Source of the DNA: Lingula anatina
Lineage: Eukaryota > Animalia > Brachiopoda
Length of the DNA stretch: 64,000 bases
Reading direction: 5' to 3'
NCBI GenBank assembly: GCA_051362555.1
Contig: CM120642.1
Span: 26,784,001 to 26,848,000, forward strand
In this document: positions 50,605 to 62,170 of the stretch, one piece after another
Numbering within the stretch: the first letter of the stretch is position 1
Layout: every line of letters begins with the position of its first letter
Made by a program: the position numbers and the translations under genes
The notes under the pieces: generated by a model
Told to the model about the DNA's origin: nothing
What the model saw: only the letters and a program-made list of their open reading frames with translations
The model's database searches: none

Positions 50605-51909
50605 GAGCAAACACCGCTGTTTCTGGCAGCAAAGGAAGGAAGTTTGGAAGCAGCAAGGATTCTTTTGGATAACTTTGCAAATCGCGACATCACCGACCAC
50701 ATGGATCGCCTTCCACGAGAGATAGCCGAGGAGAGAATGCACCACGATATAGTGCAGTTACTTGATAGCTATGGGGTGGGCAGCCCCATGATGGCCAACG
50801 GCATGGCCACATCCCCACATATGCAAAATCCACACCAGCAGTTTATGACCCCTAACGGTCACTCAAAGAAGTCCAAGAGCAAGCGGTCACGGCAAAACAG
50901 CACCGGTAGTAGTAATCACAATAATATTCACAAGGGACCCATCTCTCCCGATGGGGCTGACAGAACTGTGGCCAATAAGCCTCCCAGGTCACGGAAAAAG
51001 AAAACCAACAGCCAGAGTAAAAACTCACAACCCAGGAATCTCTCCAGTAGTACAGATTCCTCCCCTCACCACTCCCTGGGTTCACCAGGCAGCTTTAACG
51101 AGCTTACTCAGACTTTCACTGACTCATGCAATGGGCATCTATCTATGGCCCAGCAAGGCATGCATGCTCTAGAGGACATGCATCCGTCGTGTGCATTACA
51201 AACGGGGTACGACGACCCGATGATATCTGGGTACAGTCACACGAGCCCGCACCATCTTGGTGGAGGAGGAGGAGGGCCGGATTCAAATCATTTGGAGTTG
51301 TGGGAGCAGTCACAACAACAGCAAATGTCACAGCAACAACAACAGCAGCAGCAGCAGGCCCAGCGCTTGCCTTCCACTGGTTCACAAGGCAGTTTATCCT
51401 CCATGTCGCCGCCTCTGTCCCACGGGAGTCCCCCCAGCGTGACGTCCCCTGTGAAGAAAAGCTTCCCAACCTCTCCCATGCATCAGCTAGCCATGCAGCA
51501 GAGCCTCCGCATGCAGGCCAGTCCCCCCAATTACTACAACGGCAGTGAGTGCAGTCCACACAGTAGTCCACACAATTACTACAACAGCGACTGCAGTTAT
51601 GGCAACAACGTTCCCCAGCAGCAGACTGCGACGGGATATCGCATTAACGTCGGGATCGGTCAGTACCCGACTCCTCCCTCCCATCACAGCCAGATGAGCA
51701 CAGAGTCGACGCCTCAGCGAATTGCACAGGTGGCGCTACCCGAGCACTACTTGACACCGTCCCCCGACTCTCCTGGCCAATGGTCAAGTTCCTCCCCTCA
51801 CTCGGCACACTCTGATTGGTCAGAAGGGATGAGCAGTCCCGGGCAGCCTGGCATGGCGCTACGCAATAGCAGTGGAAGGCCACACTCGACAGAAGGCATT
51901 TATATTTAA
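50605..51909 (+). CDS. Notch: Notch terminal exon 33/33, ANK6-7, NLS, polyQ, PEST
   Basis: ttacag acceptor; EQTPLFLAAKEGS...DHMDRLPREIA...YLTPSPDSPGQWSSSSPHSAHSDWSEG...EGIYI-stop. Confidence 0.97.
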   Translation, partial: EQTPLFLAAKEGSLEAARILLDNFANRDITDHMDRLPREIAEERMHHDIVQLLDSYGVGSPMMANGMATSPHMQNPHQQFMTPNGHSKKSKSKRSRQNSTGSSNHNNIHKGPISPDGADRTVANKPPRSRKKKTNSQSKNSQPRNLSSSTDSSPHHSLGSPGSFNELTQTFTDSCNGHLSMAQQGMHALEDMHPSCALQTGYDDPMISGYSHTSPHHLGGGGGGPDSNHLELWEQSQQQQMSQQQQQQQQQAQRLPSTGSQGSLSSMSPPLSHGSPPSVTSPVKKSFPTSPMHQLAMQQSLRMQASPPNYYNGSECSPHSSPHNYYNSDCSYGNNVPQQQTATGYRINVGIGQYPTPPSHHSQMSTESTPQRIAQVALPEHYLTPSPDSPGQWSSSSPHSAHSDWSEGMSSPGQPGMALRNSSGRPHSTEGIYI

Positions 51910-54859: not shown

Positions 54860-55182
54860 CAGGGGCGGATCCAGGATTGTTTGAAGGGGGATACGGTTTT
54901 TAGGTTTGACCGGCCGCGAATGCGTAGCCAACCCTCGCCCGCCACCCCCCACCCCCACCCCCCTGGCGTGGGGTTCGGGGCACGCTGAAGGGCCCCGAAA
55001 TTTTTTGGTATTTTAGAGGGTGAACGATGCCATTTGGTACGGTTTAGAACCATGATTCAGCTAGCCAAAATTCTAATTTCAAGGAGAGACCATTGGTGAG
55101 ATTTTTTTCAGAAATCGAAGGGGGGGGGGGGGGGGGGGTCAGGACCTTTGGACCCCCCCCCCCCCCTCTAAATCCGCCACTG
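54860..55182. mobile_element. Non-autonomous TIR element (CAGGGGCGGAT-type MITE), ~323 bp
   Basis: CAGGGGCGGATCCAG vs reverse complement of right end CAGTGGCGGATTTAG (12/15); GC-rich interior with poly-G/poly-C runs; no clear 8-bp TSD. Confidence 0.7.
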
Positions 55183-56977
55183 CGTCGGTCTCTCCCTTAG
55201 CGGGCAACAATGAAACACTCATGACGTTATCAAAATGAAATGTTTCGTAATTTTTATTTTAATTATTTAATCTGTCAGAAAAAGTTGTATTAGAGGCTTC
55301 ATGGTAAAAGAAACGATGCATGAACTCTCGGTCGCTTTATTTCAATGAGCAGGAAAAACTTAAGTCTGTCACGTACCAGTGGACATGCTTATTTTTATAT
55401 GCAGTATTTTCTTTGACAGAACAAACTAATATCTATGGTTCTAAAAAATTCTCACTCTTCCTACTAGTAGTACTACCTTGTCTGTTTTATATTTTTTAGC
55501 TTGGTGAAAAACGCGTGCGTAGGTTTTTCTATATGCGTCATGGTACGACCTCGGAGCGAGTGGATGTCACACAAACCTTTGTTCCGAGTGACGTTGTTAT
55601 GCCCTGTCTCGTAATAGATTTTTTTGCATATTTTTATATGTAAATTGTAAGTCGAGAAACAGAGTCAAGAAAAATTATGTAACCATTCATATATGGCTTT
55701 TATAGTAGGAAGGAGTTGTCCTGTAATCATAATTTAGAAGCTGTTTGCGACGACCAGGAAAAAAAACGATTTAGTGATAGAACACTCATTTTCCCATTGA
55801 TTTGAATGAGGACCAGTGCGTAATTTTGCATTTCAACTTGGCATAGTTCTCTTATTATTATTATTATTATTATTGAAAATTTTTGTATATCTCTTCTAAC
55901 ATTTTTTTAATCGAACGTCGACCTACCATAACTACGGATTACTACAACGGCAATGATTGAACCTATAGCTGATTTAAACTGCAGAGAATAACCATATAAT
56001 GGTAAGCTGAAACAATGGTGTATACCTAAATAAATTCTATCCAGGCGTCAGTTTGTTATTATTTCACCTTCACGTTTGATCTTGGACGAATAAACTGACC
56101 TGATCGGCCGTTAATTGGTTGGCTGCTAGCCTGTTTGCAGGAGGCCACAATAGCATTTTGCGGTCTGCCAGGAACATTTGGTTTGTTTTACGTGTACATC
56201 AGACGGGTATTCATATTCCAAATGTCAAAATATCTTGCATATACTTGCCCTTTATCTTTTTTATTTGTTTGGAGAAGTGTGTTATATGCTGTGTACTTTA
56301 TAAGTATTATAGGATAAATATTCGCAAAGAAGGCAATTTTTTGAAACTGAAGTCAATGAGATTGCTTTTTCATTCTGGCTACCATACTATCTAAATTATT
56401 TGCAAGGAAAGAAGCTTTGTCAAAGTGTTTCCTACAGATAGAAAGGCAAAGGTAAGACATAGCATGGCAGTTATGTTCAAAGCTGATTCGCCTGCATTCA
56501 TTCCACAGTATAGTGTCGTCGCCATCTCGGGATTCAGAGCTTTGGGAATAACTCTAATTTACGCTCATCCGTCATCATTAAATTCTAAACCATAATCTGT
56601 TTAATGCGTCGTGACTGTGACGTTTTTACCACTTATTTTTTCTTTCAGTCCTCAAGTCTTTTTCTTAATTGATTCAAGAATGATTGCGCAATGTTTTAAA
56701 AATATCGGTTTTGTGGTTGATTCTTTACATTTTTTGCGAAAGCTGTCGTGTGCTGCACATTTTTATAGCATATAAGTATACAGTATATTTGGAAAAGTTG
56801 TCAAGATACGGGTATAATACGAACAATTTTATTCTCATAATTAAATAATATTAATACACATAAGTAATGTCCAAATTAACTTATATAATTGCTTAAAACA
56901 CATATGGCTTTGGTTGGTTTATTTAATAAATACGTCATTGTCTAATTCACTCGAATGAGTCTATTAGTAAAACGTAA

Positions 56978-57310
56978 TCATGAATCCGAATGACTCCATA
57001 ACACGTTTGAAAGAGAAATTTCTATCAGTTCTTTAAGATTTTCCCATACGACCCAGTCACGAATCAGACGGGAGGCTTCGTCCCTTTCCGTCCAGTTCCG
57101 TATCGTTTGGCTATCAGTGTTTACGGAGCCATCCGAACAAAGCCGAAGTTCACACATCCTTTGATAGAGTTCATTGATGATGCTGACCAGCTCTCGACGA
57201 GCAGCGATAAAAAATGTTTTGGAAGAAAGTGACATTTCTGGAATGTGGATGTCAAGATAGACGACATAACTTGTCAGTGCTCTAGATAGAAAAACCACTG
57301 CTGAGTTCGA
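56978..57310 (-). CDS. Putative helical cytokine, coding exon 3 (helices B-C-D, stop)
   Basis: Strong acceptor ctattttctttttctatttcag; 110 aa SNSAVVFLSRALTSYVVYLD...ELYQRMCEL...SRLIRDWVVWENLKELIE...-TGA. Confidence 0.78.
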   Translation of the reverse strand, partial: SNSAVVFLSRALTSYVVYLDIHIPEMSLSSKTFFIAARRELVSIINELYQRMCELRLCSDGSVNTDSQTIRNWTERDEASRLIRDWVVWENLKELIEISLSNVLWSHSDS

Positions 57311-59482
57311 CTGAAATAGAAAAAGAAAATAGTGTAAATGATTCAAGCGAAACCGTTTTCACTTATAAGTGCTTGTTACGAATAATAACGACTCGAAAAA
57401 TTTGGAAACATATTATACATTACATGCCTTTGTTAAGTTTTGACCGATTTCATTTTCGGGCTCCGTTGCTCTTTTTTAATCGTTCTTCATACAGAGGGGA
57501 TTGCGGTAATTAGCCGTTCTTGAATGAATTATTTGATAAAGTATCCTATATATGCAGGAGCTGCTTGAATATAAAATATTGTGTGCATGTCATGTCCGTC
57601 CCTGACATTATTAATTGCTAGCATGGAGTTAAATTACATAAACCAATTCCCAGATATGATGCTCATTTTTTAAAAGCGACAAAAATCAGTAAACATCTTA
57701 TTTTATGTAAAATCTCGAAACAGTTTTTTTCGAACAATTTTAGAATAATGTATCCGATGCATTTCTCATCTGTCGTGTGTATGTATCCTCAGTGCTAAAC
57801 ATTCTGTTTTCCATATGTTCCTAGAGACTCAACGTTTGCTCTGACTGTGCTTTTACATTCATATTTCTAAACAATCACATGAACCTTGTAATGAATAGCT
57901 AGACATGATATGATACATAGACACGATGATACATAGACACGATGATGTTTTGTTGAACAAAAATACGTAGGAAGGCCTTTATCTTTCGCACAGTAGAATT
58001 AAGGCAGATAAAAACGTTCAATTCATTGCTTACAACTGACCAGCGTTTTACAAAAGGCTGTATAACATACATGTATAAGATAAATTAGTATGGCAAAATG
58101 CAGTAAAAATACGGTCTGCGTCTTTGAAAATGCATGCCTCCATCAGAAATATTTAACAGCCATACTCTGAAGCTTATGTGGTGAATTTCAGATGGGGCGT
58201 AGCACTAGAAGCTATTTCCAGCCGTATGACACTGAATGAGGTGACAAGTACATCCAGGTCATTCCCTAGCGAAAGATCTCAGGGTTTTTTCACGGAAGTT
58301 TATGACGTAAGTTCCAGAATTTGACTGATATATAAATTCCTGATTCTAATTCCATTGGATGAATTAACACATCCTTTGGTCTTTATACCAGCATGTTTCT
58401 ATTGAACTTTTGATGTGTAAAAATGGTGTAACAGTAAAAGTAAAAACTGAATTCATGAAAGACATTTGTATGTGCTTTTCTATGATATTCTTAATTATTA
58501 TCTATTCATTTATTTGCGTGTGTGCTCACGTGTGTGTGGGCTGAATTCTTATGTCATGATTGAAATTTAGATAATACTAACCCAGTTTGTTTAACTGACA
58601 AAAAAAAAACTAAAGTAGCGTCCTTGAGTGTCATAAAGCGGCATTTATAATATAATAAACTGAACTTATATTGGTTGTAAGTAGGCCTACCTGCTACGAA
58701 AACCTGATGCTATTGAAAAAATTCACTTTAGATTTTTGCATTAATGGTTATTTATTTTTTATTTATATTTTTATTTATTTATTTATTTGTATCCAAGGCC
58801 TTGTTAATAAGACAAAGAAAGTAGACATGGATGGACAAGGAGACTTAATTGCTTAAAAGCAGCCTTTATAGCAACTGTATGGTCAGTATGAATAATCTTA
58901 AACCAAATCCAGAAGCAATAGACATATGATCTTTTCTGGCCTGAGAGGAAGATCTTTTTTCCAATGAAAACTGTTGCTCGCTTCATTTTGCTCATGTAAA
59001 GTTTCACTCTGAACTATTTAGTAAGTTCTTTTGTCTTTGGATTCATTTTTTATAACGAACATGGCACTTTGGCAAATTCAGTGAACTGAAGTCTGAAGGC
59101 TAATACAAAAAGTGTTAGTTACACGTATACATCTGATCTGAGAAATGTCATTTCGTAGACATTTTCACTCGCAAATATCTGACTACAAAGACAAATATTA
59201 TTAGAGATTATACAAGCCACTGCATGAAAAAATGTATACAGTTCACTCAAATTACCACCGAATTACACGTTTCAACATTTGCCTGACGTCATTCGTTTCA
59301 GACTGTTCATAAAACGATGCGGTTAAAAAAAGGTTAACATGACACCCCCTCCCCACCTCGTTTTCCAGACAAATTGTGAACAAAACACTTTGTGGTATGA
59401 AATAGCTTGTCGTGACAAAAAAAGTCATTCCATGGCTTTTTCCGATTCTATTTTATCTTATAAAAAATAAGCAAGGACTTAC

Positions 59483-59605
59483 TTGAAAGGTTGCAGCTAG
59501 GTGACGAGTTTTTCGTTGGAGTTGATTATTTATAGTCAGCCATCTTTTCTTTTCTCTTGCTCGTCTCCACATCTGAGTATCACTTGCTGCAAACGCTATC
59601 CTTAT
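59483..59605 (-). CDS. Putative helical cytokine, coding exon 2 (AB loop)
   Basis: ttctgtttgcag acceptor, CAA|gtaagt donor; 123 nt, only phase 0 is open: IRIAFAASDTQMWRRAREKKRWLTINNQLQRKTRHLAATFQ. Confidence 0.72.
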
Positions 59606-60029
59606 CTGCAAACAGAATATATTGGATGTCATAGGGCTCACTCCCAAAGAAACTATCGTTCTACGTGGCTCGATCCAACACCGCGGGGACTCTCGCTAAA
59701 TGCAATCAGTTTAACAGAATAACACTCCTCATCCTTTCGTTTAGTAGAATACAGACAGGCTGGTGATCATATGAATACGCTGGGAACAATTGGAGGCGTG
59801 TTTATCTCTTTATCTGACTGCATTCAGCGACATTGCCAGCGGAGTTAGATCGATCTACGTAGAACTATAGTGCCATTGGGAATGGGCCCATATGGATATT
59901 AAGTGGGTAAGTTGCAGATACGTTCAGTGAGAGATTACCGTGTTCATTGTACTGCACTAAAAACATCTTGCTATTTTACGTTTCCATAAAAGCTTTTAAT
60001 ACAATTGACAATGAAAATCGTGCAGGTAC

Positions 60030-60335
60030 CTGTTGGAGATAATTATTGGCAATAGAATCCAATAACGCCAACCTTTCCCTAATATTAGCCAGACTTCTTG
60101 CAATCACGCTTTCAGGGCGTCGATGGCTTGTCATGCAACTAGGAGAACATCGACGTTGGAGAGAAAATGAAATCATGATATTTCTTCTATGTCGTAAGGT
60201 CTTGACAGTAAATGGCGCGGTTGTTCCTGTGCTTAGAGGAATATTTGCCAGGGAAACCAAGTAAACTGTAATGAAAAAAAAACTACGAATGATAGCTAAT
60301 GGAATGAGTGTGCATCTGACGCTCATTTCTGACAT
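60030..60335 (-). CDS. Putative secreted helical cytokine (Unpaired/CNTF/IL-6-like), coding exon 1: signal peptide, RHRR furin site, helix A
   Basis: ATG at 60335; 102 codons MSEMSVRCTLIPLAIIRSFFFITVYLVSLA...RHRR...VIARSLANIRERLALLDSIANNYLQQ; CAG|gtacct donor, phase 0. Confidence 0.7.
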
Positions 60336-62170
60336 ACCGTTTGTTTCTTTTCTGTATCATAAACAAAAATTATTAATTAATTAAAATTGATGACTCACGG
60401 ATGTAACTTTCTGTTGATGCTTTTGGTGTTTGTGGTGTTATACGACTGTTTTTTTTTTTTTTTTTTTTAATTGCCACCTTTTACTGATGAAAAATTGCCC
60501 GGAAACAAACAGAATCACGTAAGATAAAAAGATAAAGCATTTGGTGACAAGGAATACATTTGCATGGAGGCAGTTTACACTGTATCTTGTCCAGGGACCC
60601 AAAGGAAAGAATCTCAAGGCATACTTTCCCTGAATCTAGGCAATAAAAAAGGTTCCATTCCTTCTGCTATTGATCTAAGAGTAAACCGCAACTATTTTTG
60701 ATTAACAATATCAGCGATATCCACCGTCAGTGGTATTTCCAATCTTAGCAGACATTATGTGGTCTTGTGTAGTGCATTTTGTGACCATCGGATTAAAAGA
60801 AAAAAGCATAATGTCTTGGAGTAAATGTGTTCGGTTCACCGCCAAGTTGCTCTTCTGTTTTGTTAAATATCAAAGTATGATGTGATCTGTATAAAACTTG
60901 ATGCAGCATTTTATTCAACTGACAGTTAAAAAATCCTATGCAGCAATAAAGGAAGGTGATCGATATTTTTCTTACTTAATTACTTAGTTAGGTATGCAAA
61001 TAGGCGTTAATTCTCAAAGAGGCATAGATGGTTTTCACACTATAACTTCCGTTGCCGGAAAATCTTTGCAAATTTTTAAGACAAAATTGTATTTGTCGAC
61101 CAGAAGTAATTTACGCTTTTCCAAATTTCTATCGAAAGGAAAAAAAACAGCAAAAACTCAGTTGAGTATCACACTTAACTACGCATTAAGCCATAAGAAA
61201 AAATTCATGATAAATTGCATTTATGTGAATACTTAAATTTGGCTGTCGGTGTGTAACGGAAAATTTGCAAAAATTACCTACCTGCCGAGAAATCCCCAAT
61301 TAAATCACTTTATGCATCATGTAAAGATGCCGAGTGAAATGCGCTTCGCTTCGCTTTTTTCTTTTAATTTCAACGCTAAATAGACATAGAAACGTAAACA
61401 ATTAAACATACCTGTTAAAAGAAGTTGTAGCCACCACATCGTTCCTTGGAATGGAATGCATTCGTAAATAGTACAATTTCCCTTTTTATTTTGTCTGCTA
61501 ACAAGATATAAATACCGTACAACAGAGGCATGCGTGGGCTGATTGTCACTCCTTTTAACTCAATCTATGTATTAACTTACGGAAGTCTTCTTAAATAAGC
61601 AAATACTTTAAAATTACCCAAAACTAACTGATATCGGACGAAAAAAAAGGTCCTGATTTGTGGTGAAAATTCGGAACTGAATTCTCACGCTTTGTTTACA
61701 TTTCAATTTTGAAAAGTGCGATTCTTCAACAGAGCAAATTTGATTTCACGTTGTACGCCCGCTGGAGTGAGATTTGACCGTCACGTGGTAAAAACTCCAG
61801 TTAGGAAGAATACAATTAGTTAAATGGACCTCGGGGCGTTACTCTGTGACATTTAGTGTACTACACTTTTTTAGGAAAGCAAAGTCAAGAGTTTTACCTT
61901 GTGACATTTGTCTACAAATGTTTTTCTTTGTTTTGCACGAGACAAATGCCAAGGCATTTGGTCTGGGGTTTAAGTCGAATTTGTTCAATCATCTATCGAA
62001 ACAATCGAAGATGAAGGTGAGCATTTAGGGTACCTTGTAATATTAAGACAAAGATAGGGCAAATAAAAAGAGATGCAAGGGAAATTTACTGACCGACCTA
62101 GATTTGGTTTTTAAGAACAAATAGAGTTAGAAATAGAGCTTCGGGGTCCAATGATTTTAGGCGATGTTTC

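Follow-up and report, generated by a model that had tools for sequence, protein, structure and literature searches.

A candidate long-chain helical cytokine gene tail to tail with Notch in a 64-kb stretch of Lingula anatina DNA

The receptor, JAK and STAT of the cytokine signalling pathway are known across invertebrates, but reports describe the cytokine itself as not found; in the literature consulted, IL-6-type ligands are said not to have been found outside jawed vertebrates and insects. Does a locus in Lingula anatina encode such a ligand? The stretch analysed here, 64,000 nucleotides (nt) of contig CM120642.1 (positions 26,784,001 to 26,848,000; hereafter the window, with position 1 as its first letter), carries on its minus strand three segments that a first-pass annotation had read as a three-exon gene for a candidate Unpaired/IL-6/CNTF-type helical cytokine. 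Our analysis gives us good confidence that the locus is a real gene. We also favour, with moderate confidence, the view that it encodes a long-chain helical cytokine of the IL-6/IL-11/Unpaired kind that would act on a Domeless/gp130-like receptor.

Reading frame and splice sites

The three minus-strand segments, 60335-60030 (306 nt), 59605-59483 (123 nt) and 57310-56978 (333 nt), are each divisible by three in length, open, flanked by GT and AG and all in phase 0. As the first-pass annotation had described, they join into an open reading frame of 762 nt, or 253 amino acids (aa), without an internal stop. Scored with a generic splice matrix, its weights taken from general knowledge, the four splice sites of this model lie at the 97.2, 94.5, 99.2 and 99.8 percentile of all GT and AG of the minus strand, and the 123-nt exon ranks first among 121 possible phase-0 internal exons (score 7.3; next 0.8). 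Among 572 simulated strands of 64 kb, one held a three-exon chain scoring as high as the candidate gene and 50 held any qualifying chain; these rates are a guide and not a p-value because the criteria were chosen after the gene had been seen. Six three-exon chains opened by an ATG and a hydrophobic start occur on the minus strand of the window and none on the plus strand; the best two of the six are the candidate gene. Frame length and amino-acid make-up, taken alone, are not persuasive. No second copy of the gene was seen within the 64-kb window.

A revised 5' end and a four-exon model

The first exon of the three-segment model was probably mis-drawn at its 5' end. Scoring of AG dinucleotides around the start revealed an acceptor at 60265 (phase 1, score 6.5, 99.5 percentile) inside that exon, and the run of T that had been read as three phenylalanines, FFF, is the pyrimidine tract of this acceptor; acceptors as strong occur about 0.5 times per kb. 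Upstream lies an ATG-opened, in-frame exon (61439-61412) with an A at -3, a hydrophobic peptide and a phase-1 donor of score 6.2 (99.7 percentile), and simulation produced a comparable exon in 45 of 3000 stretches of 3.7 kb. Joined to the remaining segments it gives a model of 28, 236, 123 and 333 nt that encodes 239 aa without a stop, with compatible intron phases 1-0-0 and each of its six splice sites ranking between the 94.5 and the 99.8 percentile. From these sequence signals the gene likely has four exons rather than three. The first-pass start does yield the N-terminal hydrophobic stretch that had been claimed for it, but the signal peptide proposed there is probably in part intron; the in-frame ATG within 60335-60266 is possibly an alternative start. 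The exons and the first intron of the revised model are as follows.

61412..61439, minus strand: proposed coding exon 1 (28 nt), from donor score and ATG context; nine residues, most of them hydrophobic, and one extra nt (phase 1); covers the first half of the predicted signal peptide
60266..61411, minus strand: proposed intron 1 (1146 nt, phase 1), from the 60265 acceptor; its final 70 nt are the first-pass N-terminus, 60335-60266
60030..60265, minus strand: exon 2 (236 nt), from splice scores, translation and AlphaFold2; remaining signal peptide, pro-segment, furin site, CxxxC and predicted helix A
59483..59605, minus strand: exon 3 (123 nt, phase 0-0), best of 121 candidate internal exons; long basic A-B link
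56978..57310, minus strand: exon 4 (333 nt including the stop), acceptor at the 99.8 percentile and AlphaFold2; predicted helices B and C, short C-D helix and helix D

Two further signals lie in this 5' region. A weak-context ATG at 61461 (minus strand) precedes the proposed start by 22 nt and does not share the reading frame of the four-exon model; splicing it to the acceptor at 60351 yields an uninterrupted product of 275 aa that carries a hydrophobic anchor in its interior. At 61281 and 61277 (minus strand), 130 nt downstream of the exon-1 donor, stands a second very strong donor (99.9 percentile) without an in-frame ATG-opened exon, which may yield an alternative or non-coding first exon.

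Predicted protein

The four-exon product is predicted to consist, in order, of a signal peptide, a pro-segment ending in RHRR, a CxxxC pair, helix A, a basic link, helix B, a turn, helix C, a second link and helix D. The 16-residue signal peptide was called by rule of thumb (hydrophobic core plus (-3,-1) rule), with a best 9-residue Kyte-Doolittle mean of 2.31 and a small-residue (-3,-1) site at 16. The furin consensus RHRR (residues 48-51), the CxxxC pair (63/67) and the helix stretches quoted in the first-pass annotation are all present in the 253-aa frame. AlphaFold2 was run with no alignment on two single exons, the first-pass exon 1 and the last exon. On the first-pass exon 1 it returned a helix at H75-101 with a predicted local distance difference test score (pLDDT) of about 70, against 53.9 for the whole block, and on the last exon alone it placed helices at residues 3-22, 28-54, 67-73 and 77-105 with a mean pLDDT of 62.5.

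60183..60194, minus strand: RHRR furin consensus, residues 34-37 of the 239-aa model, a presumed cleavage site
60033..60113, minus strand: predicted helix A (27 residues), AlphaFold2 on the first-pass exon 1 alone
57304-57245, minus strand: predicted helix B (20 residues), AlphaFold2, last exon alone
57229-57149, minus strand: predicted helix C (27 residues), AlphaFold2, last exon alone
57112-57092, minus strand: predicted short C-D helix, AlphaFold2, last exon alone
57082-56996, minus strand: predicted helix D (29 residues), AlphaFold2, last exon alone

The predicted links are 44 residues between A and B (nearly all from exon 3), 5 between B and C, and 22, with the short helix and a tryptophan, between C and D. 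Four long helices whose first and last links (A-B and C-D) are long and whose middle link (B-C) is short are the arrangement of long-chain class-I cytokines, found here in low-confidence single-sequence models of separate exons. Exon 2 ends in phase 0 directly after helix A, and exon borders coincide with predicted helix borders. The A-B exon is strongly basic (10 K/R against 2 D/E). One tryptophan lies 4 residues ahead of predicted helix D and two more lie inside it. Cleavage at RHRR would leave a product of 202 residues and 23.6 kDa with an isoelectric point (pI) of 9.8.

Comparison with known ligands

The likeness to the vertebrate IL-6 family is one of predicted helices and modelled gene layout, and the class-I reading fits the revised 1-0-0 model better than the three-exon one. 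At 239 aa the candidate is close in size to halibut IL-6 (226 aa) and IL-11b (201 aa), and it shares with this family a signal peptide, a basic pI and four predicted long helices, of which A and B are far apart, B and C close together, and C and D joined by a link that holds a short helix. In the IL-6, IL-11 and G-CSF genes, phase-0 introns follow helix A, precede helix B and follow helix C. The best model of the candidate holds the first three intron positions of the IL-6/IL-11 layout and lacks the fourth, after helix C; as in IL-11, where the first intron lies 7 bp from the start (PMC3271213), its first intron is in phase 1 and close to the start codon. The accessible parts of two papers (PMC7378365, PMC7600943) describe for IL-6 four antiparallel helices with long loops, of which the C-D loop contains a short helix, and a tryptophan at site III. 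The tryptophan just before predicted helix D of the candidate may correspond to the IL-6 site-III hot spot, Trp157. Unlike the IL-6 family, the candidate has four exons instead of five and, ahead of helix A, a CxxxC pair and a pro-segment bearing a furin site, and it has no detectable sequence or Pfam match to IL-6, IL-11, LIF, CNTF or G-CSF.

Drosophila Unpaired 1-3 (PF15972), the ligands of Domeless, resemble the candidate in being invertebrate, secreted and predicted helical, and the same mode of action is proposed here. Unpaired is described, in the part of the source consulted, as having no sequence similarity to vertebrate cytokines (PMC5645147), and Upd2 homologues as annotated in Drosophila species only (PMC5385356, likewise in part). 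The candidate differs from Unpaired in that no exon matches PF15972 and in that its host lies outside the arthropods by the Notch tree given below. Because no profile matched the exon peptides, which were tested in pieces, we assign it neither to Unpaired nor to any named Pfam family. The shrimp Domeless ligands that are not cytokines, the lectin MjCC-CL, Vago4 and peroxiredoxin 4, share with it the proposed receptor class; their architectures are unrelated, and the candidate has no lectin or peroxiredoxin Pfam domain.

The consulted part of a 2026 survey (PMC13203501) reports IL-6 as detected only in vertebrates and names only insect Upd and the shrimp lectin as invertebrate ligands, and that of a 2026 shrimp preprint names only Drosophila Upd1-3 and Vago4 as Domeless ligands. 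Our literature search turned up no publication describing such a gene in a comparable animal.

Evidence against the cytokine reading and rival explanations

Several results weigh against a cytokine gene at this locus. The coding composition of the three exons scarcely exceeds the non-coding background (-4.4, 4.2 and 2.9 bits), and open frames of at least 126 codons arise by chance in the same window too. A Pfam scan of the three exon peptides, made separately and hence at lower sensitivity, gave no family at E up to 10, and neither Unpaired nor the named vertebrate cytokine profiles matched any of these pieces. Word searches yielded no relative, as none of the 264 candidates of one and neither of the 2 of another scored, and a HMMER scan of 1.84 billion representatives returned one match, an unrelated repeat protein. 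The structure models are low-confidence and cover pieces only. Helix A had been described as amphipathic, which our tests did not confirm: the whole-protein hydrophobic-moment count was reached by 416 of 500 shuffles and per-helix moments were no higher than those of shuffles, while a binary periodicity test favoured only helix A (29/2000) and helix C (54/2000), not B (904/2000) or D (1117/2000). A fold search with the last exon alone gave only insignificant matches to LIF and IL-6. The long-chain class-I reading of the first-pass annotation agrees with the predicted helix lengths and spacing, none of the tests linked the protein to a family, and membership of class I is suggested by predicted secondary structure together with gene layout.

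RNA-seq was examined in 4 of 9 listed runs, of which 6, 6, 25 and 6% was read, with no positive control for the runs. Across the two junctions of the three-exon model, where the first-pass annotation had looked to spliced reads, no junction was seen in these runs, and there was no depth in the bins with exons 1, 2 and 4. Thirty-eight reads fall in two bins around a miniature inverted-repeat transposable element (MITE), with loose ends at its arm; they come from other copies of the element, whose end lies 28 nt before the acceptor that opens the 123-nt exon.

59634..59889, no strand: MITE-like insertion in intron 2, non-coding, with 97-nt inverted arms 77% complementary

It is distinctly unlikely that the locus is no working gene, that is, chance open frames with splice-like signals or a decayed, unexpressed gene. 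The silent RNA runs, the failure of every sequence search, the weak coding composition and the ESM Atlas recognition value of the last exon (1419, under the 2300 typical of known families, although this value is no test of whether a gene is genuine) speak for it. Set against these are the strength and compatible phases of the six splice sites in a frame free of stops, the rarity in null strands of the three-exon chain alone, the agreement of helix and exon borders, and the position of the MITE, which lies within an intron and spares the coding sequence. Very improbable, in our estimate, is a prohormone or host-defence precursor cut at basic sites into short peptides instead of folding as one bundle: four RxxR sites, several RR, KK and KR pairs and the cationic A-B exon would suit it, but the translations show no repeated peptide units, the model of the last exon shows three long helices packed together, and several of the basic pairs fall within predicted helices or at their ends.

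Somewhat less unlikely, though still improbable, is a genuine gene whose secreted, helical product is of a different type: a cytokine of class II (interferon/IL-10-like), a hormone resembling growth hormone or leptin, or a helical factor peculiar to its lineage that acts independently of Domeless/gp130. A preprint gives class-II helical cytokines five exons, 0-0-0-0 introns and five helices. The best model of the candidate, with phases 1-0-0 and four long predicted helices, departs from that layout, although a three-exon 0-0 model or a helical A-B exon is possible. Classical interferon genes are 0-0-0-0 in the same preprint whereas the candidate opens with a phase-1 intron, no secreted protein of interferon fold is known outside chordates according to that preprint, and the 22-residue link with a short helix before the last helix matches the description of the IL-6 C-D loop.

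Proposed mechanism and significance

On the long-chain cytokine reading, the signal peptide would be removed and the protein secreted; furin would then trim the pro-segment, giving the basic 202-residue product, which the A-B link may retain on heparan sulphate near its source. The four helices would pack up-up-down-down, and the tryptophan just before helix D could serve as a site-III-like contact in receptor binding, with signalling through a Domeless/gp130-like receptor to JAK/STAT. Expression would be low or induced.

The gene would encode a candidate JAK/STAT ligand in a lineage where such ligands are reported missing, and a model with an IL-6-like layout makes this gap testable with one recombinant protein. 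More tentatively, and short of an even chance in our judgement, it may be a direct descendant of an IL-6-type gene that predates the protostome-deuterostome split. It would then be the Domeless/gp130 ligand native to a non-arthropod invertebrate, with introns still placed as in vertebrate IL-6/IL-11 (one of phase 1 within the signal peptide, others of phase 0 flanking the A-B loop), and would have gained a furin-removed pro-segment and a heparan-binding loop controlling release and range. If so, the common intron positions would date the gene family.

Genomic setting

Upstream and downstream of the coding region, a motif scan found the following.

61507..61514, minus strand: TATA-like box, some 75 nt ahead of the proposed start codon
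56828..56932, minus strand: 3' region with AATAAA at 56923 and 56833 and ATTTA at 56932 and 56847

The TATA-like box is weak evidence because its pattern has 78 matches on the minus strand of the window, and so are the 3' motifs, since AATAAA and ATTTA are both common (97 and 106 matches) in this AT-rich window of about 36% GC. Ten STAT-like sites, spread over 56955-61451, lie in or near the gene; this is the count for an 8.4-kb stretch in which about 5.5 would be expected, against 42 in the window. There is an AP-1 site at 60397, and the only perfect cAMP response element (CRE) of the window is at 59291. These STAT-like, AP-1 and CRE sites would suit an inducible gene, as weak evidence.

The other recognisable gene of the window is Notch, on the plus strand at 23604-51909 (Notch-like matches from 23604, stop at 51909), tail to tail with the candidate and about 5 kb from it. 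It is a multi-exon gene encoding EGF, LNR, NOD and ankyrin domains, with a long last exon whose best identity to database proteins is 39%; its best named match is a bivalve protein (36% identity), followed by centipede and horseshoe crab. A quick tree of 27 of 111 proteins and the window Notch, built from a set without a named annelid, brachiopod or echinoderm, places the window Notch at an open fork outside the arthropod (99), vertebrate (100) and bivalve-containing (99) clades, which marks the host as an invertebrate other than an arthropod. Between Notch and the candidate gene, at 54860-55180, lies a GC-rich insert with runs of G and C that by eye resembles a short mobile element.
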